From the NCBI GenBank assembly GCA_964585915.1, contig CAZPFU010000001.1, forward strand, positions 31,420-95,419: a DNA stretch of 64,000 bases. Direction: 5' to 3'. Source of the DNA: an uncultured Methanomassiliicoccus sp. (GTDB lineage Archaea > Thermoplasmatota > Thermoplasmata > Methanomassiliicoccales > UBA472). The notes under the pieces are model-generated. The model had not been told where the DNA came from. It made no database searches and saw only the letters and a program-made list of their open reading frames with translations. Shown piece after piece: positions 31,662-64,000 of this stretch. The position numbers were made by a program, and so were the translations under genes. Each line of letters begins with the position of its first letter. The stretch's first letter is position 1.

Positions 31662-31761
31662 GCTCCCGTAGTGTAGTCCGGCCAATCATTCCGCCCTTTC
31701 GACATCGCTGCAAAGCGGTGGAAGGTAGGCGAAGACCCGGGTTCGAATCCCGGCGGGAGCA
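31662..31761 (+). tRNA. tRNA-Glu (anticodon UUC) with a ~25-nt intron after position 37
   Basis: Acceptor stem GCTCCCG/CGGGAGC plus discriminator A. D-arm GTGTAGTCCGGCCAATCAT. Anticodon stem CCGCC/GGCGA (one C-A mismatch) and loop CTTTCG|A. The insert ACATCGCTGCAAAGCGGTGGAAGGT folds as AUCGCU-GCAA-AGCGGU, with CUUUC/GGAAG pairing and 3-nt bulges (bulge-helix-bulge-like). T-arm CCGGG-TTCGAAT-CCCGG. Confidence 0.8.
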
Positions 31762-31809
31762 CTTTTTTACCGTCAAAAAATTGATATAGCCATACGTCTT
31801 TTTAGTATC

Positions 31810-32409
31810 ATGGAAGGCCTGAAAAAAACGTCAGACAAACTGTCGGACAAGAAGGCTTCCGGCCGCCCTAATCAGGGCAAGACCGAGACGATAAGGCAGC
31901 GGAAGATAGACGTTTATCTGCCTACGGTGGAGCTCATGCAGCAGTGGAAGAAGGCGGCCGAGGTCTCGGGCATGCCCCTTTCGAAATACATCCTGGAGGT
32001 GGTGGAGCAGCACCGCATGGGTGCGGTGAGGGTCACCATGCCCCCGGCTTTGCTGGAGGAGAAAGCCAACAAGCTGGAGAAGGAGCTGGCAGCGCTTCAA
32101 ATGCGCTTTGATACGCTGAACTTGGCCTTCCACAACCAGGAGGTCGAGCTTTCCCGGTTATCCAGCGCCTATCAGAGCGCCAAGGGCGGAAGCGTGGACG
32201 TCACCATGGTCAGGAGTTTGATCCAGGCATTACAGAGAGGTCCGAAGGGCGGCATGCACATAATCGACCTGATGGAATCGATGCAGTTGGACAAGAACGA
32301 CAACGACATGATCAACAGATGGAGCGACGGACTGAACTTCCTTCTGGACGTAGGATTGATTTCTAAAGACACCAACACCGGTAACCTATGGTGGAAGAAT
32401 GCCCGCTGA
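31810..32409 (+). CDS. Hypothetical coiled-coil protein upstream of the integrase (possible RHH-type regulator or excisionase)
   Basis: 199 aa. The segment KIDVYLPTVELMQQWKKAAEVSGMPLSKYILEVVEQH looks RHH-like. It overlaps the integrase start by 11 nt. Confidence 0.45.
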   Translation: MEGLKKTSDKLSDKKASGRPNQGKTETIRQRKIDVYLPTVELMQQWKKAAEVSGMPLSKYILEVVEQHRMGAVRVTMPPALLEEKANKLEKELAALQMRFDTLNLAFHNQEVELSRLSSAYQSAKGGSVDVTMVRSLIQALQRGPKGGMHIIDLMESMQLDKNDNDMINRWSDGLNFLLDVGLISKDTNTGNLWWKNAR

Positions 32410-33394
32410 ATCGATCCGCGTGCCGAAGATGATGAGCAGCGTCCTTCTCGACCCGGAAATGTTCGACTTGTTGGACCAGTTCAAGACCGAGTGCAACCTG
32501 CAGGGCATGAGCAAGAGCTCTACCACCAGTTACGTTTCGTCGATGCGCATCTTCATGTTCTTCCTGATGTCCAAGCGCAAGACGGTCTTCGAAGTAGATA
32601 AGGATGTCCTGAAGTCATACATCGACTACCTGATCAATCAGAGGAAGATCGCCTACCGCACGCTGAGCTACAACTTCTCCGCCTTAGCCGCATTCTACGA
32701 GTGGCTGCTGTTTGAGAACAAGATAAAAGAGAATCCGGTGCAGGCGGTGCGGAAGCGGTATCTTAAACGGTACAAGAACGGGGAAGGGATGCAGCAAGAG
32801 GGCCGCAAGCTTATCTCCGTCGAGGAGATGGCCATGCTCGTAAGGTCGATCGTCAGTTTGCTCGACCGGGCGATCGTGGTCACCTTGGCCAAGACCGGGG
32901 TGAGAAGAGGCGAGCTTATCAGTTTGGACGTTGACGACATCGATTGGCAGAAAATGTCCATCAAGCTCAAGCCCACGGCCAAGCGGAGCAACCGGCTGGT
33001 GTTCTTTGACGAGGAGGCGAAGCAGGTGCTGATGGAGTGGATGAACATGCGCCGCCTATACGCTCGTCCCGATTCCAAGGCCCTTTTCATCAGCCAGAGC
33101 GGCGGAAGGCTGAACAAGAACCATGTTTACGATATCGTGGTCCTGCACGCGGGACTGGTCGGCCTACACGATGCGAGCTCGGACAAGCTGGATGAACATT
33201 TCACACCCCACTGCTGCCGTCACTGGTTTACTACACACCTCAGAAGGGCGGGAATGCAGCGTGAGCACATTCAGGAGCTCAGAGGCGACTCACGCCCGGA
33301 CGCCATCGACATCTACTACCACATCGACCCGGAGGACCTCCGGTTGGCCTATCTGGCGTTCATACCGAAGTTGGGGCTGGGTTCAACGAGATAA
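32399..33394 (+). CDS. Tyrosine recombinase / integrase (XerC/D-like)
   Basis: N-terminal SAM-like core-binding domain. The catalytic region has TGVRRGELISL (Arg) and HCCRHWFTTHLRRAGMQREHIQELRGDSRPDAIDIYYH (H-x-x-R ... Y). Confidence 0.85.
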   Translation: MPAESIRVPKMMSSVLLDPEMFDLLDQFKTECNLQGMSKSSTTSYVSSMRIFMFFLMSKRKTVFEVDKDVLKSYIDYLINQRKIAYRTLSYNFSALAAFYEWLLFENKIKENPVQAVRKRYLKRYKNGEGMQQEGRKLISVEEMAMLVRSIVSLLDRAIVVTLAKTGVRRGELISLDVDDIDWQKMSIKLKPTAKRSNRLVFFDEEAKQVLMEWMNMRRLYARPDSKALFISQSGGRLNKNHVYDIVVLHAGLVGLHDASSDKLDEHFTPHCCRHWFTTHLRRAGMQREHIQELRGDSRPDAIDIYYHIDPEDLRLAYLAFIPKLGLGSTR

Positions 33395-33398
33395 TATT

Positions 33399-33709
33399 AT
33401 GGGAAAGAGCAAGAAGAAAGAAAGGAAGGCGAATGTTGACCCTGAGAATCTTGAAATCGAGGATGTGGTCGCCATCGAATGGTATGATGTTCACGCGTAT
33501 GAGCGAATTGAACTAGCGAAATCGATGATCTCGCAGAGCCCGAAGCTACTCGTTGTTGGGGCGCGGTCGTCCGAAAGGGGAAGAATTTCTTGTTCATCGC
33601 CTCAGAAATTGGCGATCGGGAATCGGATGGTGTATGGATAGAAGCCATCCCTTACAACATGATCGAGGCCTGCAAGGTGATTGACAGAGTCAAGATAGAT
33701 GACTCTTGA
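33399..33709 (+). pseudogene. Frameshifted copy of the small gene at 52113-52424
   Basis: Frame 1 reads MGKSKKKERK...VAIEWYDVHAYERIE. After about 33511-33515 the homology continues in another frame: SEIDDLAEPEATRCWGAVVRKGKNFLFIASEIGDRESDGVWIEAIPYNMIEACKVIDRVKIDDS*. The intact copy reads ...VEIRWCDVHAYERIEMSEIDELDEPEPTVCWGAIVRRGDNYLFIASEIGDKDSDGVWVEAIPYRLIESCKLIG. Confidence 0.7.
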
Positions 33710-33906: not shown

Positions 33907-36900
33907 CTACTCCTTCTCAAATCCCTGACTCGTGAATTTTAGAGTCTTGCCATTTTCCGTTACAGTACGGACCACGTTATCTGGGACTCCACTGGGAATT
34001 TCAGCTTCTATCTCTAAGGTAACCTTGACATTGGAATTAACTAATCCAGCTAAGTGGGAAATGACTTCGTCTGCAATTTTACTAGCATCTCTTCCAACTC
34101 GTGCTGAATCTAGCGTAACACTCGCATGGAATCGTTTTGGTAACGAATTCCCAGGAGGTGAAACATCTCCCTTGACAATCTCAACCTCGGCCTCTGCAGC
34201 CAAATCATCAATCTCTGCAGTTACTACGAACTCTCCTTCTTTCTGACCGGCCAGGAAGAGACCGTCTTCCGTTATTGTGCCGCCTTGAGCAAACCATTTT
34301 GCTTTGGATAGTTTCTTAGAATAGCCACCTTTTTCAAAGGCTTGCAGAAAGAACGAGATCTGCGTACCTGGATTCACTTTCAAATGGGCAGGTGTAATTT
34401 CCAAACGAACTGGTTTGATTTCAATTTGGCCTTCCGCAATTTCAGATTTCACTAGCAGCCCAGAATTACCCTCTTGAATCGAAACGCTTTGCCCTCCCCT
34501 TAACCCCCGGTAGTGATGAGTCACATCGTCATAGCTATCTGCATAAGCGAACGTGTCCACAACCCAGGTTAAGAGCCTCAATCCATCACAAATTGCGTTT
34601 ATAAGCACTGTCGCGTTTTTTAACTTAGGCAGGTATAGATATGATGCAAAGTCCTCTTCAAGTTGTTTTATTGAGACACTTTCCCCTCTCCATAGTGGAA
34701 TTTTATCAAGGTCCATTCTAAGGCGTGTTCCAGCAAGGACGGTGACTAATAATTCTTCACTTTTCAATTTCTTGCTAGCCCGGACTGCTAATTCATCTTG
34801 CCCAGTGAGACGTATTGATAACAATTCCACGGTAGATTTAGGCGTTTGTTGAATTGGTACTAACAACCATTGATATGTTTCCGGAATTTGGGCTGTTACC
34901 GTTCTATCAACCATATCTTTCTGTGTCAGGGCTTGTTTTACCTGATGTGGCGTGAGATCGAGCACATCCTTTTCTGCGAGTATTGATTCCCAGGCAAGAT
35001 ATTTTCTGATGACTTCGTCAAGGTCCTGTAAGCGCGTCTTATCAGCTGCAAGGAAAATCAAGGTATTGCGGTATATACGCGAATTACTTCCACGAGTCTC
35101 AAGTATTTTTTTAGCAAATGTTTCTGCTGGGTTTCCAGATTCTTTACTATATGCATGATTTATTCCAAGAACAACTAGTTTGATTTCATAGGACTCGGGT
35201 ACATCGCCGCTAGATGTGGGTAAAGGATGCACGCGGTCAAAATCGCCTGTTTTTCTGAGGTCGTTTCTGAGACGTCTATCGAGTTCATACTCAACTTTTT
35301 CCGGGTCTCTTTTAAACTGCTCAGCTCGATCATCTGCCAATTTTGTTACCGTCGGCTGGGTAGAGTACCAATATCGGGGCCCATCTTGGTATAAATATGT
35401 GGCAGAAGAAGCTAATCGCCTCAATGCATCTCCAAAGACAGCCGGAGTTTCACCGGGAACGACACATCCCAATTTGATTCGGCGATCCTCTAATCCTCGA
35501 TTTGCGGCTGACGGATTTGGGGCTGAGCCTAGGTAAATTGTACGAGCTACGCGGCGACTTGCTGCAAACTTCCCCAGATTTGGAACCTCCGCATCAATCT
35601 GGAGTGGCAGTGAATTTGGACCGTCTACATCCTTCTCAATAATTGGAATCCAGTTGTCTGAAAGGTATCGAGTTAGTTCAAATTGGACACGTTGATCCTC
35701 GATAGGTATACTTGCAGGCATGATGAGCGCGTTCCTGTCTCCTTTTTCCCAAAGACAGTAAATGACGGCAGCCATTAATCGCAGTACGCCACGTGTTCGT
35801 TGAAATTTTACCAAGGTTGACCAATCTGAGTAGAGTCTATCGAAGACCTCGGGATGGATTGGATAGGCTGCCCTCAGACGTTTTTCATATTCAATATCAT
35901 GACACTCTGGTGGAAATTCTTGTTGTTGGCTACGGTAAAGATCTGCAAAAGCTCTTGCTATAATATCTCGATCTTTAAATTGATCCGGATCGGTCATTGG
36001 CTCGAATAATCTACGACGAACGATCTCAAATCCTTCCTCAGCACTTGCTGGCCTCCAGGTGGCTTCGACACGACCGACCACATTACGAAGTCGATCCAGG
36101 GCTTCTCTTCCCCGCTGACCTCCAACCTCGACATCATCAGCCTGCGTGTGTGGTGATCCCGATGTGTCCGAAGCTGGAAGGCTGATGACTAACATGCTGT
36201 TCTTCGCCAGTTTAACTGATTCTGTTAGGGCCTGGGCGAAACTAAATTGCGTCTCAAAACTACCAGCGGGAAGATCGCTATTGTCATGAAGCTGGCGAGC
36301 ATATGCCACCCATTCGTCAATAAGAATGATACAAGGCCCATATTCGTTGAAGAGCTCCCTTAATACATCGCCCGGGTTTGTAGCTTTTTCATCATCCGCT
36401 TTAATCCGCTCAAAGGCCTTTCTACCACCCAGTTGCCAAGCTATTTCTCCCCACAGGGTCCTAACGATTGTACCGTCCGGTTTGGTCATAGGATTGCCTG
36501 GAGATATCTTATTTCCAACCAATACCACCCGGTTCGCCTTTGGTATAGTCTTAATCCCCGATTCAATGAGCACGTGATCGATACCCAATAGTTCGCTCGA
36601 TTTTGCCTTCCCAGAAAACAGATGGTAGAGGGCAAGCATTGAATGAGTCTTTCCCCCACCGAAATTTGTTTGAAGTTGGACCACTGGGTCTCCCCCCTCA
36701 CCAGAGAGTCGCTGCAATCCATTCAATAATAGTCGATTAAGGCTCTCTGTAAGATAGGTACGCCGAAAGAATTCCACTGGATTCCGATATTCATCCGTTC
36801 CTTCACCAAGATGGACTTGCCAGAGATCTGCTGCGAATTCTGCTTGCTGGAAACGACCGCTGGCTACATCCTTATGCGGGATGATAATTTCGCGCCACGG

Positions 36901-37398
36901 CTTAAGAGTGCTCGTGACACCCTCAACTGAAATACTGGCTGTTTTCCGACGTTCACTTCTTGCTTGTTCATCAAAAATCAAGCGGCGGAGCTCCATTTTC
37001 ATTTTTCTAATTTCTTCTGCTTGGGGTGCAGAAATTGCAGTTAGTAGCCTCTCAACGGAGTCTAGCGCACGGTCTGTATCATCGCTGGAAAATGCCTCCT
37101 GGTGTGCCCACTTGTTGCGTACTTCCCTAAGTTCACTAACTAAGCTGCGTTCAGCATAACCAAAGATATTACGGAATATATCGTTCCAGGTATTCCAGAT
37201 TAATTTGAGCAGTGCGGCAGAGTCCCAATCTGAAATTGGCTTCTTTATTAGTGGATCGTTCTCATCGAGTGAAATAATGGCCTGCGAAATAGCCTTTTCC
37301 TTATACACATTCTGGAATTCCCGTTCAACGAATGGCCCAAGACCGCCCCTTAGTAATTCCAACGCCTTTCCAATTCGTTCATGATTGGTCATAGCCAT
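33907..37398 (-). CDS. DUF499-family ATPase with an N-terminal Swt1-like HEPN domain
   Basis: Start placed at MAMTNHERIGKALELL (GGAGG lies 9 nt upstream). HEPN motif RNKWAH (37102-37119). Walker A NFGGGKTHSML. Walker B CIILIDEWVAY. C-terminal tail typical of DUF499. Confidence 0.8.
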   Translation of the reverse strand: MAMTNHERIGKALELLRGGLGPFVEREFQNVYKEKAISQAIISLDENDPLIKKPISDWDSAALLKLIWNTWNDIFRNIFGYAERSLVSELREVRNKWAHQEAFSSDDTDRALDSVERLLTAISAPQAEEIRKMKMELRRLIFDEQARSERRKTASISVEGVTSTLKPWREIIIPHKDVASGRFQQAEFAADLWQVHLGEGTDEYRNPVEFFRRTYLTESLNRLLLNGLQRLSGEGGDPVVQLQTNFGGGKTHSMLALYHLFSGKAKSSELLGIDHVLIESGIKTIPKANRVVLVGNKISPGNPMTKPDGTIVRTLWGEIAWQLGGRKAFERIKADDEKATNPGDVLRELFNEYGPCIILIDEWVAYARQLHDNSDLPAGSFETQFSFAQALTESVKLAKNSMLVISLPASDTSGSPHTQADDVEVGGQRGREALDRLRNVVGRVEATWRPASAEEGFEIVRRRLFEPMTDPDQFKDRDIIARAFADLYRSQQQEFPPECHDIEYEKRLRAAYPIHPEVFDRLYSDWSTLVKFQRTRGVLRLMAAVIYCLWEKGDRNALIMPASIPIEDQRVQFELTRYLSDNWIPIIEKDVDGPNSLPLQIDAEVPNLGKFAASRRVARTIYLGSAPNPSAANRGLEDRRIKLGCVVPGETPAVFGDALRRLASSATYLYQDGPRYWYSTQPTVTKLADDRAEQFKRDPEKVEYELDRRLRNDLRKTGDFDRVHPLPTSSGDVPESYEIKLVVLGINHAYSKESGNPAETFAKKILETRGSNSRIYRNTLIFLAADKTRLQDLDEVIRKYLAWESILAEKDVLDLTPHQVKQALTQKDMVDRTVTAQIPETYQWLLVPIQQTPKSTVELLSIRLTGQDELAVRASKKLKSEELLVTVLAGTRLRMDLDKIPLWRGESVSIKQLEEDFASYLYLPKLKNATVLINAICDGLRLLTWVVDTFAYADSYDDVTHHYRGLRGGQSVSIQEGNSGLLVKSEIAEGQIEIKPVRLEITPAHLKVNPGTQISFFLQAFEKGGYSKKLSKAKWFAQGGTITEDGLFLAGQKEGEFVVTAEIDDLAAEAEVEIVKGDVSPPGNSLPKRFHASVTLDSARVGRDASKIADEVISHLAGLVNSNVKVTLEIEAEIPSGVPDNVVRTVTENGKTLKFTSQGFEKE

Positions 37399-37403
37399 GG
37401 TTT

Positions 37404-40241
37404 TTATTCCTCCTCGGATAATTTTGTCTGCCCCTTTGGTAGAACTGAAACCTCTTTTAACAATTTTTGCATCTCTGGCCAACTCTGAACCAACGAATTA
37501 TAGATGAGGGCCTCCTTTGCACGTTTCTTTCGTTCACAAATTGTGAAAAGCCTATAAGCCAGTTCACGTGCAGCATCTGCTTTATTGCCCAACTTCTTTT
37601 TCAATTTTGCTGCATCCTGTTCTCCTCCATTCTGAAGAACCCGGATAAGTTGGTGCGTAATTTCCCAAACAGTGAGTTTTTCTTGATCATCGGGATTCCA
37701 CTCTGGAGATAACTCTTCTGGCTTGAAGAGCCTTACTTTACCATTTTTTGAGAACAGAATACCATCCGACATCATTCCTAAAACGCTTGTATTTTTAGCC
37801 TTTGATAGAGTTTCTGCGACCCCATACTCCCCAAGATTGAAACCAAATTGTTCGAACCATGCTAATGCCCAACGACTTTCGGCATCAAAATCCCCTTCTT
37901 GTTGAGTAAGAACTTCATCAAGCATTTGGTTGATCAATGACAAAGCTTCCCTTACTGTAACAGCCTCTCCCTTTGCGTCGATTATTTTAGAGTAGCGGGA
38001 AAAAATACCCATTCCTGGACCTATCGCAGCTTGCGCCAAATCCACTGGTGCAATATTGCTTTTCTGTAGTTGAATGAATGCCGGAGGTAATTCTGTTTTC
38101 ATGGTATTGAGAAATTCTCGCCTTGTTATCACAGGGGCATTCTTCTCCCTGGTCCGACAGACCAGAACGATGCTTGAGGCCAATGCATTGGTGTTCTTTG
38201 CCACCATCCTCCCGGCACCCTCCGTTCGAATAGGCCAAGTTCCACAAATTGTGAAACCGGCTTTCATAACAGCCTCGATAAACGTCTCCCAACCAGTCGA
38301 AACAGTTCCTTCATCATCGTCGGTTTCAGATTGCTTGAAGGCGTAATATATAGTAACCGGATATTCTGGGTGTGCATGGTCTGCTAGCCTTTCCATGGTC
38401 ATAGTCATGCCATCGAGGAAAAATTTTTCTGCCGACTCCCTATCCTTATGACGAAATGGAGTAGCCACGAGTTCTTCGGTTTTTGGAACAGCCATAGTGG
38501 AGAATAATTCTGGATAGATAGATTTTAATGAACGTCTTAACCACACGTAAAAAAAGTCTGAAAGGTCTGCATATCCGATGTTGTCATAATATGGAGGGTC
38601 GGTGCTGAAAAGGATTTTTTTATCCAACCTTTCTATGACTCTCGCATCTTGTTGAAATACGTTGGCACTTTGACATCCTTCTGCAACTTCCAAATAATTA
38701 GTAATTACTTTTGCACATGTTGATACATCTCCACTTGACTTTCCGAAGGGGTTACACTCTGCAAAATCCCACGTCATAGCCAGTGCTTGTCTCGGCATTC
38801 CATCTCTTAGAGCATTGTCCTTTGTAAGCCAGGTGGTTAGACTGGAACCGTAATATGCCATCCGATCGGTTATACATGCTAAATAAATGGCTATGGAATC
38901 GGCATATGCGGTGGCACTTACTCCCCCTTTATCAAGTCCTCGACCGTCATCGGTCAAACCTGCTTCGACAGCATCAAATAGAGCCTGATTTCTAACTTCC
39001 GTAATCAAATCTGTAAAAGTAATAAGGGATAAAAGTTGACGCTGAGTAAAAAGATCCTGCCACTTCGTCATACCATATTCCTGAACACGGAAACCCAATG
39101 CTTTTTTGGGAAGGTCTGTTTCTGGGGCATTACTCGGGTGCACATTTCGAGCAATATTTTCAATATCCATTGTCGGTGATAAATATACTCTCCCCCGTTT
39201 ACCCTCCGCAACGATAGCCATAAGACTCTGACCCATACGGCCCTCTTTTGCTTCTCTTCTAATATATTCAAATGATATTGGGGTCCCAGACATCAGACAC
39301 AAGAAGCTGCTACCACTGCTGCCGGCCTTAGTACCCATCTGAGTCTTCTGCAACTCATTTGGTTTTCCAACTCTTACCTCGAAGTGATAACCATCGTCAT
39401 GGATTATCGGTTGAATATAGACTTCTCTTCCATTCTTACTTGAAAGCATAAATGTCGTCGTTAGCGGTACATCCACATTCGCATAGGCTGGGTTGGGACT
39501 TTTCACTGTTCTTGCCCAAATCCATGCAATCACAGTAAGTTCCTGTCCGATATATTCGCTTAGTTCTGGCTGATTTTTTACCAAATTTTCATCAACTTTG
39601 ATATTTGGATAAAAATGGCCAATCCGTTTCTTAGCCATCTCACGAATTAGTTGACTATAATACTGTACGTCAACCGCAAGACCCTGAGTATTATACCAAC
39701 CACCTGACACAAGTCCGCTTTGCTTTCTTGACTCAGGATTAACCGGTGCTAGCCCTGAGAATTTAGGGGGAATCTCAATCAGAGCCTTGTTGATCAGTAC
39801 AGCTACTGGATTAATATCTGATGAAAGGGTTTTCAGACCTAAACGTTGGGCTTCTAAGGGAATAGAGCCCCCTCCGCAAAATGGATCATATAATAATGGG
39901 AGTTCTCCATTTGTGGATTTAATTATCTCCTTATGAACCTGCCCTAAAAAGGATTTATCATTTGAATTTTCCCATTTTATTAAATCTTCGATTAAATTTA
40001 ATAACCTCTCTCTTTCTGCATTTTGGTCTTTCTCAGTTGGAAATTTATCTGGCCTACTGGATGGGTCGTCTATTAAGGACGCAAAAAGGACAGCGCGGCA
40101 TGCTGCCAATGGTCTTTGCGCCCACCATTTATGGAACGACGTCGGAAAACCCTTAGGTGCCTTTTGTTTACGGCGTAATGATTCCTCATTTATTGCATTA
40201 AGTGGTAAGGCAACCTCTATAAGTTTCTTGCTCATAAACAT
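37404..40241 (-). CDS. DUF1156-family DNA methyltransferase (N6-A/N4-C type, DPPY)
   Basis: N-terminus KKLIEVALPLNAINEES...FHKWWAQRPLAACRAVLFASL is the DUF1156 signature. SAM motif YDPFCGGGSIPLEA. Catalytic motif STDPPYYDNIGYADLSDFFYVWL. Confidence 0.85.
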   Translation of the reverse strand: MFMSKKLIEVALPLNAINEESLRRKQKAPKGFPTSFHKWWAQRPLAACRAVLFASLIDDPSSRPDKFPTEKDQNAERERLLNLIEDLIKWENSNDKSFLGQVHKEIIKSTNGELPLLYDPFCGGGSIPLEAQRLGLKTLSSDINPVAVLINKALIEIPPKFSGLAPVNPESRKQSGLVSGGWYNTQGLAVDVQYYSQLIREMAKKRIGHFYPNIKVDENLVKNQPELSEYIGQELTVIAWIWARTVKSPNPAYANVDVPLTTTFMLSSKNGREVYIQPIIHDDGYHFEVRVGKPNELQKTQMGTKAGSSGSSFLCLMSGTPISFEYIRREAKEGRMGQSLMAIVAEGKRGRVYLSPTMDIENIARNVHPSNAPETDLPKKALGFRVQEYGMTKWQDLFTQRQLLSLITFTDLITEVRNQALFDAVEAGLTDDGRGLDKGGVSATAYADSIAIYLACITDRMAYYGSSLTTWLTKDNALRDGMPRQALAMTWDFAECNPFGKSSGDVSTCAKVITNYLEVAEGCQSANVFQQDARVIERLDKKILFSTDPPYYDNIGYADLSDFFYVWLRRSLKSIYPELFSTMAVPKTEELVATPFRHKDRESAEKFFLDGMTMTMERLADHAHPEYPVTIYYAFKQSETDDDEGTVSTGWETFIEAVMKAGFTICGTWPIRTEGAGRMVAKNTNALASSIVLVCRTREKNAPVITRREFLNTMKTELPPAFIQLQKSNIAPVDLAQAAIGPGMGIFSRYSKIIDAKGEAVTVREALSLINQMLDEVLTQQEGDFDAESRWALAWFEQFGFNLGEYGVAETLSKAKNTSVLGMMSDGILFSKNGKVRLFKPEELSPEWNPDDQEKLTVWEITHQLIRVLQNGGEQDAAKLKKKLGNKADAARELAYRLFTICERKKRAKEALIYNSLVQSWPEMQKLLKEVSVLPKGQTKLSEEE

Positions 40242-40314
40242 TCATTCCCCAGTACTTTAATGAAATCTTGAAATTGCTTATACACCAGATACACGAACGA
40301 TGGCAGCAATTTTG

Positions 40315-43300
40315 TCATCGCGGCACCTCCGCTCGTTGAATCAATTCAGCAAAATTGTAATTAACACTCGTAACCCCAAAGTCGGGCTCGCGCTGGAATG
40401 GTCTGCGGACGTAGTGGATTTTATATGAATCGTCTGGCATAAACTCTACAATTGCCAGAATGAAATCGTCGGGTTTGTTGAATGAATAAAGAATCTCGTT
40501 CTTTGTCACCGTTATTGTTTCAGCACCAGAGATTCGCCCTTTAACTTCTATGAAACGTAATTTTCCTGTACCTGGAATCCGACTTTCTACATCGTAACCC
40601 AACTTTTCAAGCTCACGGTCTATTGGATCGTATCCTAGGGTCCTTTCCACTTCCATTACTGCAGCCCTAGCCTTAGCAGCTGAAATTTGGGTGTCTATGG
40701 CCTGTGACGAACTTAGAGCTGATTTTCCAGCCATCTTGGCCAAGAGCCCGGCTGGGATGACCAACAGACCACCGAGGACCACTGGAGGCAATGCGGATAT
40801 CTGTCTTTCCAATTTCAATTCTGTCAAGCGTTTTTCCAGTCGTCCTTGTAAACCATCAGCCCGTTTACGGGCCTCCATCGAATTCAGGCGGGCATTGACC
40901 TTGCCTGCTTGCTCCTGAAGTTTGAGATCCTCTGCACGATGGTCCCAGTAAGCGATCTCCTTGGTCAATCTGTCCTTGACCGCCGCTTCTGTCTTGTCAA
41001 TGAGCTCCAACTTACCCGAACTGACCTCTTGCATATGCTCTGGAATTACATGCGCCACTGCATAGTCCAATACTTTTTGTTCCAATTCTCGTGTGATCCA
41101 TGCACATTCGGGGAGAGCAAGTAATGCATCCATTTTTGGTTCGTTTTCTCCAAGTGGCCGGTAGTCAAGATAAGGAGCATAATGCAAGTGTCGCGTGTTA
41201 TTCGATTCATCCATTTCTACATACAGCATCCTCTTGGAGATGAGGCGCCGTTCACCTGATTTAGTAACATTAGCATCTTGAATACCATGTTCCAGATAGA
41301 AAAGGATCCGTGGCTTGGTTCCGGGATCTCGCTCATCGACCAAGACAGTTCCCCGTCTCAGTAGGTCTTGATGACGCTCCGTGATCAGGTCGGTAACGGC
41401 TTCAAGCAAGGGATGGCCTGGACATATGAAGGCGGCCAATGGCTGGCCTTGGGGTGCTACCTGCGATTTGTCGAACGCGATTCGTTCATATCGAGATAAA
41501 ACTGGCTCCCCCGTGCCTATGAGCCGGTCCCGATTGCGTATGATGGATGGCACATGGGTGATCTCATAACGCCGAGGCTCACGCTGTTTCATCGTGCCGC
41601 CCAAACGCTGGAATGCTTCGGAGAAGAAAGACTCCACGTAATGTGGTTGGAGCCTTCGGGCTTCGGCACGCTCCATGTCTTCCCGAATTCTAAAGACGCG
41701 ACTTGCATCCATGGAATCGTGAGCCAGGGCTCGTTCCTCCAGAATATCCTGTAGCTTTTCCTTGTCAAATGCGTTTGCGACAACTGTCGTGAGGCGTGCC
41801 CTGACTTCGGGTGTTTCGCCGTATCGAATAGCTTCGATCAATAGGTCCCGAAGAGGTTTTCCTTCAAACTGAAGTCGACCTAAAACATCGAACACTCTGC
41901 CGCCCATTGCCAACCTTGCTTGTTCCAATTTTTCAAGCAATGTAAGATAGACGTCACCTTCCCTGGTCTCCTCGGCTACCAGATTCCAGAGATGGCAGAC
42001 TTCGGTCTGGCCAATACGATGAATTCGTCCAAAACGTTGTTCTATGCGATTCGGGTTCCAAGGCAGGTCATAGTTGACCATGAGATGAGCCCTCTGCAAA
42101 TTGATGCCTTCTCCGGCCGCATCAGTCGCGAGCAATACCTGTACCTCAGGATCGTGCTTGAATGCCTCCTGAGCCTTCATCCGTTCCTCGCGCCCCATGC
42201 TGCCGTGGATCAGTACAACGGACTCCTTCCGGCCTAAAAAAGTAGTAATTTTAGCATCCAGATAATTCAATGTATCGCGATGCTCTGTAAAAATCACGAT
42301 TTTCTGATGGGGGGAGGATACCGGTTTGGGAATCGTTCTAGGCATTTCGAGCTTATCCTTTGATATATCGCCATTCATCGCCGTCACTGGAGAGAATATC
42401 TCACCTAACAAACTCGCAAGTTCGCACCATTTTCTATCCTCCCCTGAATGACGAACAACGCCAGCTAACTTAACCAGGTGATCGAGGGTTTCGATCTCCG
42501 CATTTAGCTCGCTGATGGTACGAGATGCGGTGCTCTGATCCAGAATTTCCTCTTCAGCGATCTCGACCTCGTTGTCTGGTGCTTCATCCAGATCTTCTAC
42601 GTCTTCAGCATCTAATGGTTTGAATCCGAGATCTTGTGAGATCTGCCCCCCACGTTGTAACAGTTCCAGTTCTCTCAATTTACCCTCTAAACGCTGTTTG
42701 CGGCGTTGAAGGGACTGATAAATGGCTTCTGGCGAAGAGGCCAGGCGGCGTTGCAATATAGTTAATGCGAAACCTACCGTTCCAGCCCTTTTATCGTTCT
42801 GGAGCTTTTCGGCTCGATTGAACTCCTCGCGAACATATTTCGTTACTTCATAATAGAGCTGGGCTTCGGTTGAAGATAATTTATAAGGTACTGTGTACGC
42901 GATCCGCTCGGGGAATAATGCGGTGCCATCGAATTTGTAGAGATTCTCTTTGACCATCCGACGCATCATGTCAGAAACATCGGCTGCGTGAACCCCATCC
43001 CGGAATCGTCCTTCGAATCGATCCCCATCCAACAACGCCATGAACAGTTGAAAATCCTCTTCCTTGCCATTATGTGGCGTAGCGGTCATCAACAGAAAAT
43101 GGCGTGTCAATGTAGAGAGTAACTGACCTAACTTATAACGACGCGTATACTTGATTTCTCCACCAAAGATCGTTGCTGACATCTTGTGCGCTTCATCGCA
43201 AACGATCAAGTCCCACCGACAATCGGGCACTTTCAGCTTCTCTTGGACATCCTCATTACGCGAAAGTTTATCCAATCGAGCAATGACCAGATTGTTTTCC

Positions 43301-43890
43301 ATGAACCAATTGCCAGTGCGGGCGGCTTCTAATTTGTCGTTGGTCAGGATCTCGAATGGAAGATGGAACCGACGATATAGCTCGTCCTGCCATTGTTCCG
43401 CGAGGCTTCCTGGACATACCACCAGACATCTGTGCAGGTCGCCTCGTGCGATCAACTCCTTCATCAGAAGTCCCGCCATGATGGTCTTTCCCGCCCCTGG
43501 ATCGTCGGCCAACAGGAATCGAAGAGGCTGACGTGGCAGCATGGCATCGTAAACAGCGGTTATTTGATGAGGAAGGGGCTCGACAATGGAAGTGTGGACC
43601 GCGAGAACGGGATCGAACAAGTAAGCGAGATGGATACGGTTGGCTTCGGACACGAGTCGGAAAAGGTCTCCATCTCCATCGAAACTCCATGGACGACCTT
43701 CTTCTACAACTTCAATTCTTTTCTCATCGTGCCGATATAGAAGCTCACTTGCAGGTTTTCCATCTGGTGCCTTATAGGTAAGCTCTAAAGCTTCTGACCC
43801 AAACCAGCGGACATTAACGACTGTCACTAAACCATTGGGGAGAATACCACGGATTGATGCGTTTGGACGAAGATCCTCAAGTTTGCTCAT
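40315..43890 (-). CDS. SF2 (SNF2/DEAH-type) helicase with a C-terminal DUF3883/REase-like domain
   Basis: Motif I LLADDPGAGKT, motif II VCDEAHKM, motif III MTATPHNGK, motif VI QRFGRIHRIGQ. C-terminus GYDVESRIPGTGKLRFIEVKGR...TKNEILYS (D...E-x-K). Confidence 0.85.
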   Translation of the reverse strand: MSKLEDLRPNASIRGILPNGLVTVVNVRWFGSEALELTYKAPDGKPASELLYRHDEKRIEVVEEGRPWSFDGDGDLFRLVSEANRIHLAYLFDPVLAVHTSIVEPLPHQITAVYDAMLPRQPLRFLLADDPGAGKTIMAGLLMKELIARGDLHRCLVVCPGSLAEQWQDELYRRFHLPFEILTNDKLEAARTGNWFMENNLVIARLDKLSRNEDVQEKLKVPDCRWDLIVCDEAHKMSATIFGGEIKYTRRYKLGQLLSTLTRHFLLMTATPHNGKEEDFQLFMALLDGDRFEGRFRDGVHAADVSDMMRRMVKENLYKFDGTALFPERIAYTVPYKLSSTEAQLYYEVTKYVREEFNRAEKLQNDKRAGTVGFALTILQRRLASSPEAIYQSLQRRKQRLEGKLRELELLQRGGQISQDLGFKPLDAEDVEDLDEAPDNEVEIAEEEILDQSTASRTISELNAEIETLDHLVKLAGVVRHSGEDRKWCELASLLGEIFSPVTAMNGDISKDKLEMPRTIPKPVSSPHQKIVIFTEHRDTLNYLDAKITTFLGRKESVVLIHGSMGREERMKAQEAFKHDPEVQVLLATDAAGEGINLQRAHLMVNYDLPWNPNRIEQRFGRIHRIGQTEVCHLWNLVAEETREGDVYLTLLEKLEQARLAMGGRVFDVLGRLQFEGKPLRDLLIEAIRYGETPEVRARLTTVVANAFDKEKLQDILEERALAHDSMDASRVFRIREDMERAEARRLQPHYVESFFSEAFQRLGGTMKQREPRRYEITHVPSIIRNRDRLIGTGEPVLSRYERIAFDKSQVAPQGQPLAAFICPGHPLLEAVTDLITERHQDLLRRGTVLVDERDPGTKPRILFYLEHGIQDANVTKSGERRLISKRMLYVEMDESNNTRHLHYAPYLDYRPLGENEPKMDALLALPECAWITRELEQKVLDYAVAHVIPEHMQEVSSGKLELIDKTEAAVKDRLTKEIAYWDHRAEDLKLQEQAGKVNARLNSMEARKRADGLQGRLEKRLTELKLERQISALPPVVLGGLLVIPAGLLAKMAGKSALSSSQAIDTQISAAKARAAVMEVERTLGYDPIDRELEKLGYDVESRIPGTGKLRFIEVKGRISGAETITVTKNEILYSFNKPDDFILAIVEFMPDDSYKIHYVRRPFQREPDFGVTSVNYNFAELIQRAEVPR

Positions 43891-44168: not shown

Positions 44169-44960
44169 TTACTCAATCGGCAAAGGGTCAATCATATCAA
44201 TATTAAAAAGCGACACGTCCAGGCTCTCCAATATCTTGATCCCTTCTGGCGAATCGGGATCAAAACCCAGGTTTTTGAGCAGCCCCTGCTCATCGAGATA
44301 ATCGAAATAAATCTCCAGAGCTTGGAACATGTACATTTCTCCGAGAATCCCCTTATCAGTCCTTAGAGGGAATCTAATTCCAAATCCATCAGGTGATGCG
44401 ATAACGATCCACATTCCTGACCATCGTTTCTGGAGGCCGAAAACCGACTGTTCTTTGACGACATCCCCGAGGCGAGTCTTTCCACGAAAGATGTCTTTAG
44501 CCATTTGAATGGCATGAGTCAGAAAACCCTCAAGTTCGAAATTCATTGTTTTTTTATCATAAGAACCTGGTTTGTTGAAGTAGGCTAATAGTTCCGGATT
44601 AAGGACGGCGATCTTCTGACGAGGATTCCATTTGTAGGCGCTCTTGTCAAAAGCTTGTTCTAATCTCTTCATCATTTCTTCTTGAGGACATGTCTTCTGC
44701 CAGATGATTTCTCCATTGTCCTTGATGTGACAATCAATCTCCCCTGCCAGATTGACACAATATGTTAGTTTCACATTCCTCTCTAAAGATTGGACCCCCA
44801 TTGTAAATCCGGACACAGTAGGAGAGAAATACATTGAGACGATGGGTATATCCGCCAGCGTCAAATGCATTTTAGAACGTTTACTGTCCGTCATATTTAG
44901 TTGTTGACCTAATTCTTCTAAGATTCTTACAGAGAACTGAACTCGAAAGTCTATGTCCAA
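44169..44960 (-). CDS. Hypothetical protein
   Basis: 263-aa ORF (TTG start; internal ATGs are possible starts), co-oriented and immediately upstream of the helicase gene. No family recognised. Confidence 0.5.
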   Translation of the reverse strand: MDIDFRVQFSVRILEELGQQLNMTDSKRSKMHLTLADIPIVSMYFSPTVSGFTMGVQSLERNVKLTYCVNLAGEIDCHIKDNGEIIWQKTCPQEEMMKRLEQAFDKSAYKWNPRQKIAVLNPELLAYFNKPGSYDKKTMNFELEGFLTHAIQMAKDIFRGKTRLGDVVKEQSVFGLQKRWSGMWIVIASPDGFGIRFPLRTDKGILGEMYMFQALEIYFDYLDEQGLLKNLGFDPDSPEGIKILESLDVSLFNIDMIDPLPIE

Positions 44961-45023
44961 TAATTTACCTGGTTTATACCTCAGTTATTTGCTGAGAATC
45001 GATTAGTATACCCACACTGTCGT

Positions 45024-45061
45024 TTGAATGGGGTTTTGGGTATATATATATGGACTGATGC
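45024..45061 (-). promoter_or_regulatory. Shared upstream element, copy 2 (upstream of the 263-aa gene)
   Basis: See copy 1. It includes TATATATATAT. Confidence 0.35.
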
Positions 45062-45272
45062 TGGGTTTCGTAAAATGAAATATATTGAGATATGAAGAAA
45101 ACGACCATTTCTCATCCGGATTTGATTATCGTGAGTTAATATGTCCTCGGAGAGTTTTCGCTTCAGGCCTCTGAATAAGTCACCCCATTCACCGATTCAA
45201 TGAAAAGTTTAAAAATTAATTCTATTATTTATTAATTGGCGTATCTTTATAAAATTCTATATATAGATTTTA

Positions 45273-46538
45273 TTATTCTCCCAGCGCCCGTTTCATTAAT
45301 TCCAACTCAGCATCGATCTCGTCAACTCGAGATCTGAATTTTTTAACCCATTCATCTGACATTTGAAGTTCTATCATCATTTTTTGGATTCGATCATCGT
45401 CCTTGGCGTCCTTATCTCTCTTTACTAAATTTTGATGTTCCAGGATATGTTTTTCAACAAATGCTGATAAATCACATTTTGATTTAGGGATGATAATTAT
45501 ATTATTTGGTAGTTTGAAATAATCTGGATGTTCCTTTATTTCGTTAGTAACGATGAGAACATTGCGTGGGAATCTTCCAACGAGAAGGTCGATACTCGAG
45601 GTGATGGAGCAACCATCCATCATCGTACATAGTGTCTTAATCCCATTTTTAGCGAAGATATATGCGCCCTTGCTTGACCAATCAAATGCAACACCATCAT
45701 AAGGTCCGTTGACCCAGAATTGCATACCATTGTGATTCATTCTTCCACCGAACACATGGTTAAGCGCGGCGGGTGCAGAATCAACGGCCCCTGGGTTGGT
45801 GAAGCAATTTAAAAGTGCTTGAATATCAGCGTGTTTAAGAAATAGAAAAAGTCTGTGCGAAGCATTCTGTTTCAATTCGACGTGTATCTGACATAGAACC
45901 TTTCGAGTATCAGCGTTTCCTAATAGATATGCGAAAGTGCTTGCCATTCCTTCGCTGATCCAACTATCGGCAATACCCTCGAAATCGACGGAAGTCAGTT
46001 GTTTCACCTTCGATAAGGGTTGATTGGCCAATAAGTAATGATGTCCTAGTTCGTGCAATAGAATCGCATGAAAAGTCAATTGCAAGGAATTTTTATTGTT
46101 TATATCGAACAGATCCCGCTTAATCCTCTTTGATAGTTCTTCAATTCTACTGGTGCATAGATAGATGTGCGTCCGATATTCATTAGTAGATATGGCCTGC
46201 GGGATCCAAAAACCAAAACTGGTGTCAATGATTGCCTTATTCTGTTTTTTATAAAATTCAATGACCGCATCAGAATTTGACCAATTTACAGATCCATAAT
46301 CAATCAATTCTGGCTCGTATGCCATCACATTCAATTTTTTTAATCTCTTACGTTCTTCGTCATATTCAACTTGATCCAACAGATGAACGGTAGAAACCGG
46401 TTTAGCAATCGAATATTTGAAAAGGGTTCGCTGGCCATCACCATAGGCGATGTCTGGACCTAGATTATCGAGCAATTTCGCTATCCATTTTTCATATATT
46501 TCTGGGATATTATTATTTCTGATAATTTCAGGTCTCAT
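45273..46538 (-). CDS. Hypothetical protein with an HExxH zinc-metallopeptidase-like motif
   Basis: 421 aa with AILLHELGHHYL (HELGH) and a C-terminal coiled-coil tail. No further family recognised. Confidence 0.5.
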   Translation of the reverse strand: MRPEIIRNNNIPEIYEKWIAKLLDNLGPDIAYGDGQRTLFKYSIAKPVSTVHLLDQVEYDEERKRLKKLNVMAYEPELIDYGSVNWSNSDAVIEFYKKQNKAIIDTSFGFWIPQAISTNEYRTHIYLCTSRIEELSKRIKRDLFDINNKNSLQLTFHAILLHELGHHYLLANQPLSKVKQLTSVDFEGIADSWISEGMASTFAYLLGNADTRKVLCQIHVELKQNASHRLFLFLKHADIQALLNCFTNPGAVDSAPAALNHVFGGRMNHNGMQFWVNGPYDGVAFDWSSKGAYIFAKNGIKTLCTMMDGCSITSSIDLLVGRFPRNVLIVTNEIKEHPDYFKLPNNIIIIPKSKCDLSAFVEKHILEHQNLVKRDKDAKDDDRIQKMMIELQMSDEWVKKFRSRVDEIDAELELMKRALGE

Positions 46539-46649
46539 CAGTTGCTTCCCAAATCAAATTGATTTTTTGGTTAGATTTCTTTCGTAAAACGGTTTCTCAA
46601 TGTATGTAATTGATGTCTAATCTCTGATTAATTAACGTAATTCTCTAAA

Positions 46650-46674
46650 GGAAATGGAATCCTATTCCATTTCT
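46650..46674 (-). terminator. Hairpin downstream of the protease gene
   Basis: GGAAATGGAAT-CCT-ATTCCATTTC inverted repeat, 13 nt beyond the stop at 46687. No clear oligo-T tract follows. Confidence 0.25.
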
Positions 46675-46686
46675 CCAAGGGTCAAG

Positions 46687-49600
46687 TTATTTTTTTCTCT
46701 TAACCCTCCATACTACGAGTCCAATTACAATACCGAGGATCACTATCACTATTATCGCGATGAGGATGAGATCAATCCCCACCTCGGGAACCTTCAGGCT
46801 GATCTCACCGCTTGGGTCACTGCTCGTATAGCAGTTATTGGCGACTATGTAATACCCATAAGACCCGCCGATCTCAATATCAAGGTCGTTATAGGCAGTG
46901 GAGTTGACCGTTGCTATCTTAATGAAATCGCCATCATTCGTCGACCGATAGATATCATATGAAGTTATCACCGAGCCCCCATCGTCATCGGGCGGCGACC
47001 AAGTGATCACGATCATCCCATCGACATAGGCCGCCTGAACGCTGCTTACTGTGCCCGGGCTGGTCACGGTTATCACTGTGAAATTGAAGTACCGTACGGT
47101 CTCCAAATTCCCAGCCTCGTCCATCGATCTATACCTAAGAACGTGTGACCCAGGTGATACTACCTCAAAATCCTCTGAGTAGTTTTGCCACACATCGTTA
47201 TCTAGGCTGTATAATATGGAATCGACCCCGCTGTTATCATCATGTGCTTGCAAGGTCAGCTTGAGCTGGTTTGCGTACACAACATCCTCGACAATCAAAC
47301 CATCGACTTCCAAATCTGTCGTAGGGGCAGCGCGATCCAATCCCCTGGATGCGTTGATCAATATAGTATTGCCAACGAGATCGCTCACCTGAAATTCTAG
47401 TAAATAGAAACCGTCCTCTGAGATAGAGAAGGGGTTCGAATAGATCATCCAATTTCCGCCGTTGAGACGATACTTTGCGCTCTCTACCCCCGCACCATCA
47501 TCAGAGCACACAAGCTCCACAACAAAGGTATCATTGTTCCAAATTCGGTCCCCACTGGAGAAATTCACCTCGCCCTCGGGGGCGGTGACATCGACCATTA
47601 TGATCTGATGTTGATGCAGACCCTCGTTCCCGGCATTATCGACGGCATAGTATTCCAGATCATATTCGCCGGTATCGTTGAAAAAGATCGTTCCATCGTA
47701 TTCCGTGAAATCACCAGGTCCAATACGATACCACAATGCACTGATCCCGCTCACGATGTCGACGGCAGACAGAGATGCCGCCACCGGCTCCTTATTCCAT
47801 CCTGAGTCGTTAAAAGAGTTGCTGAAAACCGCCACCGTTATAGGCATCGTTTCATCTATATTCACGGTGACGATCTCGGTCTGACCCTGGTTATTTGTGT
47901 TGTCTACAGAATAGAATTCCAGGGAATTGACACCGTCCTGGTCCAATGTCAAGGTGGTTGGAGATGCACCGATGGCCCATTGCCCGCTGTTCAATCGATA
48001 TCGGATCTCCTGGACACCGCTGCCAAGGTCTTCCCCACTTATGATTACGGTCACGGGAGTAACATACCATCCATTATCGCCCATGGTGCCATTGAGCGAT
48101 GCATTGGACGAAGGGGCGATCGTATCAACGATCACGACAGCGTCATCATTCTCCTTGTTCAACTCGAAATTCCCGGCTTGATCGACAGCGCATGATTTTA
48201 ATCCGTAGGTACCGTCCCCCCCGAGAACACTGGTGGCCAGTTGTATTGTTCCAGGTGCAAAAATGCCATCAGGGTGAGTAGCATCTTGATATGGTATGTA
48301 ATCAGTTGAACCGTCCGGCGCATAGAAGACGTATACGCCAGCGATTCCGCTTCCAACATCGAAAGCTGCGACCTGAACATCGAACGTTGAGGCGTTGGTC
48401 ATGGCAGGGGCGGTCAACAGGGAGACCGGGCGTCTGTATTCCGTTGCCCAGAGGGAGACATCATCGATATAGACACCTTCATACGGCCCTAGGCCAACGG
48501 TATTGTCGCTGTGGAAGGAAAATTCGAATGCCGTACTTCGGTTGTTCAATTGAACCGTCACTTCTTTCCAACCACCACTGTTCATCTGTGGCTGTGTCCA
48601 AATGGTATGCCATGAGGATGAATAGTACTCTCTCAAGACGAAATAATCATTGAAAGAGAGGGACCCCGTGACAGCCCAATAAGCGAACTCCATACTCATT
48701 TCATCATAAGCGGTGACATTGAGATCCAGGACCACATAGACATCAGCATCCATGCTCTCATCGTAATAATGGTTGACGGAGTTTAATTCCCCATTATGGC
48801 TATTCGATCCAGATTGAGCGCACCATGCGCTGTATCCCCCCGATAGTGAACGATAATCAGATAATCCCCAAGTATCCGTTCCTGCATCTGAATTCAAATC
48901 TCTGATGTACCAGCTTTGTTCCAGGATCCCGTCAAAATCTTCGTTGATTACCAGCGTACTGCTCCGCCAATTGGAGATGACGATTCCCGGAACGTCTACA
49001 CCGCCCCTCAAAGGGGCGGAAATATCTGAAGGATCCCCCTGAATATATCCCGCATCATACCGTTCTATCCTGAACTCCACGACGCTACCTGGGATGGTGC
49101 TACCATCAATTGATAGCGCGTAACTTCTTACCCCATTTTGAAATTCCGTGTCCAACTCGGTAATGTCCAGGCACATAAAATTGGGTAAAACATAATTAGC
49201 AACACCCCTCCAGAACGGCTCAATGGTGTTGTATATTCCTGATACAAACGAATACGCGCCGACCTGCACATCGCTATCTCGCGATGGGGAAGGTGTGAAT
49301 TCCCAAGCAGCGACCATCTTAGGTTGATAATCAACCTTATCGAGCAGGGTCAATGCCCCCAGGTGATTCCCGATCTCTTTGAAGGCCCCATAGGTCATCC
49401 AGAAATATCCATTATCACCCCATGCATCTCCCCAGGAATTCACGATCTTGAATGCACCGAGGTCTCCATCATCTGTTACGGTGTCATCATATCCTACGAT
49501 TGTCACCGCATGAGATGTGGTGGTCGAATCGTACTCCGCCGATGAAAGAATGAAGTTACCATCGGTAAAGGCGCTACCGGGATTACCATTGATAAAGGAA

Positions 49601-52543: not shown

Positions 52544-52559
52544 TTCGCTCATATGAGTG
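52544..52559 (+). repeat. 16-nt repeat TTCGCTCATATGAGTG, copy 1
   Basis: An exact copy lies at 63431-63446. The core CTCATATGAG is palindromic. Both copies are intergenic. Confidence 0.4.
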
Positions 52560-52642
52560 AAAAATGCCATTAATTAATGGTTAAAACGAGTGATATTTAT
52601 GTACGATACGAATCATTATATTTCATTAACAGGCGAAATGAT

Positions 52643-59967: not shown

Positions 59968-60115
59968 TCGTTATAAATATTAAAACACTGGCCTTTCATT
60001 TATTCAGTGATTTATGACTGAAGATGCACATATGAATTTTATATGGAAATGAGTGAGAAAACATCGCTAAGAGGTTTATATCAATATCAATATATGATGG
60101 AAATTGGTGGGGAGT

Positions 60116-63995: not shown

Positions 63996-64000
63996 TACCT

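Follow-up and report, generated by a model that had tools for sequence, protein, structure and literature searches.

A complete, uninterrupted Hma operon on a low-GC genomic island of a Methanomassiliicoccales archaeon

Described Hma systems and the archaeal locus

The helicase-methylase-ATPase (Hma) systems are candidate defence operons of bacteria and archaea. Here we compare with them three genes, hmaA, hmaB and hmaC, that occupy positions 33907-43890 on the minus strand of a 64,000-nt stretch of DNA, referred to as the window, from an uncultured Methanomassiliicoccus sp. (contig CAZPFU010000001.1). The architecture was described by Anantharaman et al. in 2013 as an Ava_2192-type HEPN-AAA+/methylase/SNF2-DUF3883 restriction-modification (R-M) operon (PMC3710099). 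Bell et al. 2020, of the Koonin group, predicted that an operon running from COG1743 through DUF499 to a SWI2/SNF2 helicase-nuclease is a restriction system of diverse archaea, and reported that DUF499 is related to Cdc6/Orc1 (PMC7641849). In the PADLOC study, Payne et al. 2021 gave the helicase-methylase-ATPase candidate system the name Hma and found 1638 operons in 26 phyla (PMC8565338). An earlier reading of the DNA letters, the first-pass annotation, had stated both that the trio was a predicted defence system and that the PADLOC work listed it as putative Hma; both statements agree with these papers.

Direct evidence for defence came from Liu et al. 2024, who found that Halomonas HmaA alone protects Escherichia coli from phage T4 by ∼100-fold (PMC11232893). 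Protection required R610 of helicase motif VI and the PD-(D/E)xK nuclease residues D1084, E1104, K1106 and E1121, and in the presence of Mn2+ the isolated C-terminal domain nicked supercoiled plasmid but not linear DNA (PMC11232893). The first-pass annotation had called the mechanism not established. This is partly out of date given these results on motif VI and the PD-(D/E)xK nickase, which support the HmaA step in a homologue. The same study found insertions between the genes in ∼66.5% of hma loci, and hmaA neighbourhoods without HmaB or HmaC in 14.7 and 19.3% of cases, respectively (PMC11232893). More recently, Rakesh & Krishnan 2026 renamed the group DUF499-centred BREX (bacteriophage exclusion)-related, or BR, systems, with Type 1 corresponding to Hma. 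Type-1 BR was found in 2446 taxa (203 archaeal), its ATPase being fused to HEPN in 1370 of the 2446 and its helicase carrying a C-terminal PD-(D/E)xK nuclease in 79% (PMC12839542).

The window locus matches this system in its three genes, their order and their domain architecture. It fitted every feature tested: the helicase motifs, the NOV_C nuclease, the DUF1156 N6-adenine methyltransferase and the HEPN-DUF499 ATPase. PADLOC-DB profiles matched HmaA, HmaB and HmaC with end-to-end coverage at 1693, 1289 and 1135 bits, bearing out the Hma identity proposed in the first-pass annotation, and chance can be excluded because all three matches had E values of 0 over their full lengths. The copy differs from its described counterparts in being compact, whereas ∼66% of loci carry insertions, and in an HmaC that holds a Big_2-type immunoglobulin (Ig)-like domain in place of the usual disordered linker. 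Nothing essential differs, and the locus, hosted by a Methanomassiliicoccales archaeon, is a typical complete member of a known and very common kind. We consider it likely that it constitutes a complete, compact R-M-like defence operon of the Hma (Type-1 BR) class, horizontally acquired by this archaeon on a low-GC island.

Related systems were compared in turn. Type-2 BR reportedly corresponds to the 'restriction-like' system that Gao et al. 2020 validated. Its components are a DUF499 ATPase, DUF3780, a DUF1156 methylase and an HKD/PLD-helicase, represented in NCBIfam by DUF499_antiphage, DUF1156_antiphage and phospholipD_antiphage. The ATPase, methylase and Snf2 helicase are homologous to those of the window locus, and the same R-M-like logic is presumed. 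About half of Type-2 ATPases are also reported to carry a beta-sandwich (FnIII-like) pair ahead of the C-terminal domain, reminiscent of the Big_2 insertion in the window HmaC. We rejected Type-2 BR for this locus, which has no DUF3780 gene, carries its nuclease as a C-terminal PD-(D/E)xK domain rather than an N-terminal HKD/PLD domain, and scored only 176, 112 and 160 against NCBIfam equivalog cut-offs of 1200, 1000 and 1100. The PADLOC PLD_Helicase profile matched only the Helicase_C region of HmaA (residues 546-657, 98 bits).

Type 3 BREX consists of BrxC, PglXI, BrxHII, PglZ, BrxA and BrxF. In the published classification the Hma ATPase, N6-adenine methyltransferase and Snf2 helicase mirror BrxC, PglXI and BrxHII (PMC12839542), and HmaA scored 302-319 bits against the PADLOC BrxHI and BrxHII profiles. 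In contrast to BREX, the window helicase is fused to a canonical nuclease. BREX of any type and Type-3 BR were rejected, as the scanned proteins gave no PglZ or BrxC match and no BrxA or BrxB/F was found in or near the operon. In the flanking open reading frames (ORFs; 31810-33394 and 44169-50433), DUF3780 and PglZ/iSTAND had no Pfam, PADLOC or NCBIfam match.

DISARM (defence island system associated with R-M) likewise pairs a Snf2-family helicase, DrmD, with a DNA methylase (DrmMI or DrmMII) in a defence operon. The second-best profiles of HmaA were those of DrmD, with 410 bits in PADLOC and 350 bits in NCBIfam (cut-off 610), and the DrmA helicase-core profile of PADLOC gave a partial match of 214 bits. 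The DUF499 ATPase and NOV_C nuclease of the window are not DISARM components, however. DISARM was rejected because genes for DrmA, DrmB (DUF1998), DrmC and a PLD protein are absent and the DrmD score remained below its NCBIfam cut-off.

Domain architecture of HmaA, HmaB and HmaC

The operon begins with hmaA (40315..43890, minus strand), encoding a 1191-aa SWI2/SNF2 (superfamily 2) helicase-nuclease. It is followed on the same strand by hmaB (37404..40241), for a 945-aa DUF1156-type N6-adenine DNA methyltransferase, and hmaC (33907..37398), for a 1163-aa HEPN-DUF499 AAA+ ATPase. Spacers of 73 nt (40242-40314) and 5 nt (37399-37403) separate the three long co-oriented ORFs, with no intervening genes, so that the span and both gaps reported in the first-pass annotation were recovered exactly. 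The mechanically called hmaC ORF begins at a TTG codon (37482). ATG 37398 is the likelier start, judging from a Shine-Dalgarno-like GAGGAGG 9 nt upstream, within the last codons of hmaB, and from hmaC homologues that begin at the matching position. By this arrangement hmaB and hmaC are predicted to be translationally coupled.

All three ORFs are uninterrupted. To assess conservation we aligned 31 HmaA, 49 HmaB and 62 HmaC orthologues taken from related loci. The window copy has all of the catalytic and nucleotide-binding residues, and among these homologues nearly all of them are invariant or near-invariant. The first-pass annotation had described a complete copy with intact catalytic motifs, and the helicase, methylase and ATPase motifs it quoted all lie in the proteins it named. 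It identified the three domain cores correctly and missed two further domains, the C-terminal NOV_C of HmaA and the N-terminal Swt1-like HEPN of HmaC.

HmaA matched the PADLOC HmaA profile with 1693.5 bits (residues 1-1190 on profile positions 1-1172 of 1176) and contains Pfam SNF2-rel_dom, ResIII, Helicase_C and NOV_C. The Snf2 helicase core (41911..43581, minus strand; approximately residues 104-660) carries motif I (GAGKT, 132-136), motif II (DEAH, 232-235) and motif VI (QRFGRIHRIGQ, 618-628), and with the exception of A133, I623 and G627 these motif residues are invariant in 31 of 31 homologues. At the C-terminus lies a NOV_C/DUF3883 PD-(D/E)xK nuclease domain (40411..40671, minus strand; residues 1074-1160, Pfam 65.4 bits). 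Its residues D1100, E1115-V-K1117 and E1132 are present, and the D, ExK and E positions are kept in 29-30 of the 31 homologues. By motif pattern and spacing, the two proteins being unaligned, D1100, E1115, K1117 and E1132 appear to match D1084, E1104, K1106 and E1121 of Halomonas HmaA. A search of the PDB returned generic Snf2 proteins only. The best solved relative was RapA, which matched the first helicase lobe alone (residues 104-294). Residues 1-100 and 650-1075 had no Pfam match even at E ≤ 1; the Type-1 helicase has been described with an N-terminal TUDOR domain and an internal inactive restriction endonuclease (Rakesh & Krishnan, PMC12839542).

HmaB matched two PADLOC HmaB profiles at full length (1288.9 and 1213.8 bits). 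Pfam placed it in DUF1156 (79 bits, residues 11-82) and HmaC in DUF499, as the first-pass annotation had proposed, having named failure of this placement beforehand as a result that would count against it. A MethyltransfD12 match of HmaB was marginal. The protein contains HKWWA (37-41), the S-adenosylmethionine (SAM) motif DPFCGGGS (119-126) and the catalytic DPPY (548-551), which is conserved in all 49 homologues. The least conserved part is the stretch between the SAM motif and DPPY, as expected of a putative target-recognition region. This recognition region and the C-terminus had no Pfam match even at E ≤ 1, and sequence and profile searches with HmaB found no match in the PDB.

The PADLOC HmaC profile matched residues 164-1161 of HmaC (profile positions 2-940 of 941; 1135.5 bits), and Pfam identified HEPN_Swt1 (123.5 bits) and DUF499 (117.8 bits). 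Walker A (GGGKTH, 247-252) and the D-E-W of Walker B (IDEW, 360-363) are invariant in 62 of 62 homologues, I360 being replaced by valine in five. The Swt1-like HEPN domain (37030..37368, minus strand; residues 11-123) lies outside the PADLOC profile, whose match begins at residue 164. Its Rx4H motif reads R94-N-K-W-A-H99, and R94 and H99 are likewise invariant in all 62. The HEPN region was modelled confidently in the full-length AlphaFold2 (AF2) model, with a predicted local distance difference test (pLDDT) score of 80-91. One relative, P0001, encoded on a Logan contig of 4.2 kb and 91% identical to HmaC, has CNKWAQ in place of RNKWAH, so that both HEPN catalytic residues are changed; it is conserved outside these residues, and the window HmaC retains RNKWAH.

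A second conservation minimum covers HmaC residues 1001-1080. Here a Big_2-type Ig-like beta-sandwich (34177..34407, minus strand; approximately residues 998-1074) is placed between the body of the protein and a conserved C-terminal domain. Residues 995-1085 form a 91-residue segment with a regular beta pattern, whereas 61 homologues have a linker of 28-54 residues rich in Pro, Gly, Thr and Ser. An AF2 fragment model was all-beta, with pLDDT 85-95 over residues 998-1074, and a Foldseek search with it gave as best matches the Big_2 domains of LigA and LigB, Big_2-CBM56 and phi29 capsid BIG2 domains (E 1.7e-5 to 1e-3). The region had no Pfam match even at E ≤ 1. At least six other protein clusters (P0001-P0006; 70-91% identity), one of them from Methanomethylovorans, have the insertion in common. 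On this sequence evidence it is a small-clade variant of HmaC, not unique to this genome. The Big_2 domain is the sole unusual feature of this Hma copy.

The conserved C-terminal domain (33910..34143, minus strand; residues 1086-1163) has 56-65% column identity across the 62 homologues. AF2 predicted a beta-alpha-beta-beta-beta arrangement with low confidence, and in Type-1 ATPases this domain has been described as RRM/ferredoxin-like (PMC12839542). The HmaC C-terminus gave no Pfam match even at E ≤ 1. The full-length HmaC model was poor (pLDDT 56, predicted template modelling score 0.30), and a fold search with it was uninformative for this reason, returning only the Big_2 domain and weak AAA+ matches.

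Gene-order conservation and the genomic island

A scan with one genome per species, the source genome not being among them, yielded 220 HmaC relatives, of which the best 80 were used to compare loci. These 80 are 48-76% identical to HmaC over the whole protein, HEPN domain included. Most belong to a wide range of bacteria (Acidobacteriota, Chloroflexota, Planctomycetota, Cyanobacteria, Desulfobacterota and others), alongside a few archaeal metagenome-assembled genomes (MAGs). When all three proteins were searched with tblastn, the order hmaA-hmaB-hmaC was found in nearly all loci of sufficient length, with identities of 51-78% for HmaA and 32-65% for HmaB. Many of these loci carry 1-4 kb between hmaA and hmaB, and the genes neighbouring hma differ among them. 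Two close relatives were viewed in context, and one has the same compact A-B-C layout. In an archaeal-type locus whose HmaC is 74% identical (L085; GCA_964403385.1, CAYOHB010000046.1), a gene for a DUF1016/YhcG PD-(D/E)xK nuclease (5974-7029) stands between hmaA and hmaB, exemplifying the reported hotspot for insertions in hma operons; the window operon is without one.

In a collection of 5.8 billion proteins, HmaC had at least 8000 relatives at E ≤ 1e-50. Among the matches listed, the nearest clusters were 91 and 81% identical, with further clusters down to 74%. The nearest species-labelled matches came from two methanogens, Methanomethylovorans (72%) and Methanosarcina mazei (69%). HmaC homologues carry the RefSeq label 'Swt1 family HEPN domain-containing protein' and the PADLOC label Hma, and they occur on 106 plasmids in PLSDB.

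The left half of the window is archaeal core DNA of ∼60% GC. It encodes archaeal Pus10 (489 bits, cut-off 200), a family-B DNA polymerase (PolB), a RIO kinase, eIF-1A and ribosomal protein L21e. The PolB sequence shares 86% identity with proteins of Methanomassiliicoccales archaea and 59% with a Methanomassiliicoccus protein, which places the host among the Methanomassiliicoccales methanogens. An intron-containing tRNA-Glu(UUC) gene (31662..31761, plus strand; Rfam tRNA 45.7 bits, tRNA-Glu(ttc) in the intron mode of ARAGORN) is the likely integration target and left border of an island. A 199-aa ORF follows downstream and then a tyrosine recombinase/integrase of 331 aa (32399..33394, plus strand), convergent with hmaC, which matched Pfam Phage_integrase (87 bits) and Phage_int_SAM_4 and scored 158 bits against NCBIfam archaeal XerA, under the cut-off of 220.

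The GC content of third codon positions (GC3) is 0.49 for hmaA, 0.37 for hmaB and 0.39 for hmaC, compared with 0.79-0.88 for host core genes. The integrase (0.80) and the 199-aa ORF are host-like at 0.77-0.80, unlike the cargo. The composition breaks directly after the integrase, and low GC persists to the window end. The hma operon is thus horizontally acquired, on a low-GC island beside tRNA-Glu and an integrase. Archaeal-type Pus10, the intron-containing tRNA-Glu, the 86% identity of PolB to Methanomassiliicoccales MAGs and this sharp compositional break substantiate the archaeal island setting given in the first-pass annotation. Neither an attR copy of the tRNA 3′ half nor long direct repeats bounding the island were found within the window; therefore the island extends past position 64000.

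Six other samples yielded contigs of the same organism that match the core at 99.7-100% identity, and all of these end ahead of the cargo, at 31803-32275 or 33562-33621. None of these independent contigs spans the integrase-hmaC junction, and an exact-sequence look-up found no record of this HmaB elsewhere. Because the contigs from other samples stop before the cargo and the exact HmaB sequence is unrecorded elsewhere, the island seems to be strain-variable, the sequence data pointing to cargo behind the integration module that differs between strains.

We considered whether co-oriented ORFs upstream of hmaA, or the integrase, belong to the system. Directly upstream lie two low-GC ORFs of 263 and 421 aa (44169-44960 and 45273-46538, minus strand), which had no Pfam, NCBIfam or PADLOC match and no counterpart in the 80 hma loci. 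Next to them a 1248-aa, very acidic protein (46687-50433, minus strand; isoelectric point 4.05) combines a papain-family C1 peptidase with MAM-like, Ig-like and fn3-like repeats. Its sequence suggests a protease that is secreted or displayed at the surface and forms part of the island cargo. Its gene is co-oriented with hma and not conserved with it. The three ORFs and the integrase were rejected as members of Hma because they do not recur with hma in the related loci, the sole match of these neighbours among the 80 being a partial Ig-domain match of the 1248-aa protein in L068.

The window contains other defence genes. Within the same low-GC island is a CBASS (cyclic-oligonucleotide-based anti-phage signalling system) pair (60104-61608, plus strand), consisting of a SMODS/CD-NTase cyclase (60104-60868; PADLOC Cyclase 262 bits) and an overlapping NucC-type endonuclease effector (60847-61608; PADLOC Effector 308 bits, Pfam DUF6602). 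An AbiL-like pair (16078-17975, minus strand) comprises an AAA_21 ATPase (16710-17975; PADLOC AbiLi 314 bits) and an RloB-like protein (16078-16713), and sits in a separate low-GC islet (GC 0.44-0.48 amid the ∼60% GC core) adjoining polB. An RmuC-family gene (56612-58165, minus strand), a divergent gene for a TerB_N-domain protein (58220-59821, plus strand; weak PADLOC SngA match) and a NUDIX gene of the same island (62718-63287) could also have defence or accessory roles. Positions 52544-52575 and 63431-63462, 10.9 kb apart, hold two imperfect copies of a 32-nt direct repeat (TTCGCTCATATGAGTG..., 78% identity). The two copies enclose the RmuC, TerB_N, CBASS and NUDIX block and may be the borders of a nested element.

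Proposed working of the operon and its alternatives

In the R-M-like operon that we favour, the N6-adenine methyltransferase HmaB, whose recognition region is large and variable, would mark host DNA at a specific motif. HmaC, an ORC/Cdc6-like AAA+ protein with DNA-binding and variable C-terminal modules, would assemble on DNA and license the effector on unmarked or foreign DNA. HmaA would then translocate by its Snf2 motor, and its C-terminal PD-(D/E)xK domain would nick or cut unmodified DNA. The N-terminal HEPN RNase of HmaC could serve as a back-up that shuts the cell down if restriction fails. Methylation-based discrimination of self from non-self, this role of HmaC and the activity of its HEPN domain are what we infer from the domains present and the conserved linkage of the genes, and by analogy to BREX and R-M systems.

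Several observations weigh against such an R-M-like mode of action. T4 propagated in HmaB-expressing cells was still restricted, though T4 DNA is heavily modified, and Halomonas HmaA was active without HmaB or HmaC and was non-toxic, unlike the prediction for a classical R-M system (PMC11232893). Furthermore, 15-20% of hmaA loci are without hmaB or hmaC (PMC11232893). HmaC itself had no match in the PDB, and a profile of 30 HmaC sequences matched no chain there, BrxC included, so that the kinship of DUF499 and BrxC was not reproduced. The hma genes are also far from the host in composition (GC3 0.37-0.49 versus 0.79-0.88), and expression and activity of the operon in this archaeon are predictions.

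The main alternative has HmaA as an autonomous effector. It would respond to a DNA state peculiar to infection, for instance foreign DNA that is supercoiled or being replicated, and nick it independently of methylation with a dormancy or abortive-like outcome, HmaB and HmaC being accessory or regulatory. The ∼100-fold protection by HmaA alone, the nicking of supercoiled but not linear DNA by its C-terminal domain, the unchanged sensitivity of T4 upon HmaB expression, and the hmaA neighbourhoods that are missing HmaB (14.7%) or HmaC (19.3%) all point this way (PMC11232893). So does the tolerance of about two thirds of loci for insertions between the genes (PMC11232893), seen here in L001, L009 and L085. 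However, the effect of HmaA alone was seen in a single heterologous host and with a single phage, whose DNA is hypermodified, hmaB and hmaC are by prediction translationally coupled in the window, and the three-gene order is kept across many phyla with the catalytic residues of HmaB and HmaC invariant. Conserved linkage together with intact HmaB and HmaC active sites therefore argues that all three genes are under selection as a unit. We regard an autonomous HmaA as a possible explanation, though one clearly less probable than the R-M-like operon.

It is very unlikely that the operon is inert cargo or was joined to the archaeal chromosome only by an assembly error. The foreign GC3 of the hma genes, the mostly bacterial origin of the closest species-representative relatives, the integrase-hmaC junction without an independent spanning contig and the HmaB sequence unrecorded elsewhere would all fit such an explanation. 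Yet all three ORFs are uninterrupted with every motif intact, the nearest HmaC clusters are 74-91% identical and the nearest species-labelled ones, at 72 and 69%, are from methanogens. Archaeal integrated elements normally look like this, with a tRNA gene and an integrase ahead of low-GC cargo that includes several defence systems, and strain heterogeneity likewise yields contig breaks at the borders of a variable island. Least credible of all is a housekeeping epigenetic or DNA-repair module (a Snf2 remodeller with an orphan methylase): Snf2 and ORC/Cdc6-like ATPases do work in chromatin and replication, and the best solved match of HmaA is the transcription factor RapA, but the operon lies beside an integrase on a strain-variable, compositionally foreign island with CBASS, has a patchy cross-domain distribution that includes the 106 plasmids, includes fusions to two nuclease domains of toxin type (PD-(D/E)xK and HEPN) and has a homologue with a direct anti-phage phenotype.

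Within the R-M-like operon the Big_2 domain invites a further, speculative suggestion. The HmaC clade that bears it might be a distinct Type-1 BR sensor variant, whose beta-sandwich would recognise an archaeal virus or plasmid component and couple this recognition to the HEPN RNase or to HmaA, in parallel with the FnIII-like pair of Type-2 ATPases; we hold this to be improbable. If true, the compact archaeal operon would be a convenient entry to self/non-self discrimination by three proteins.

The architecture has been in the literature since 2013, bears two names and is recognised by standard annotation, and this locus adds little to knowledge of the system. To our knowledge, Methanomassiliicoccales are a group with few characterised defence systems. 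The value of the locus is modest and lies in a clean, uninterrupted three-gene copy on a foreign, seemingly strain-variable island of a methanogen from this order. It may be of use in assigning the target motif of HmaB from methylome data, and in asking whether the methylase, ATPase and helicase-nuclease act together as an R-M-like unit.

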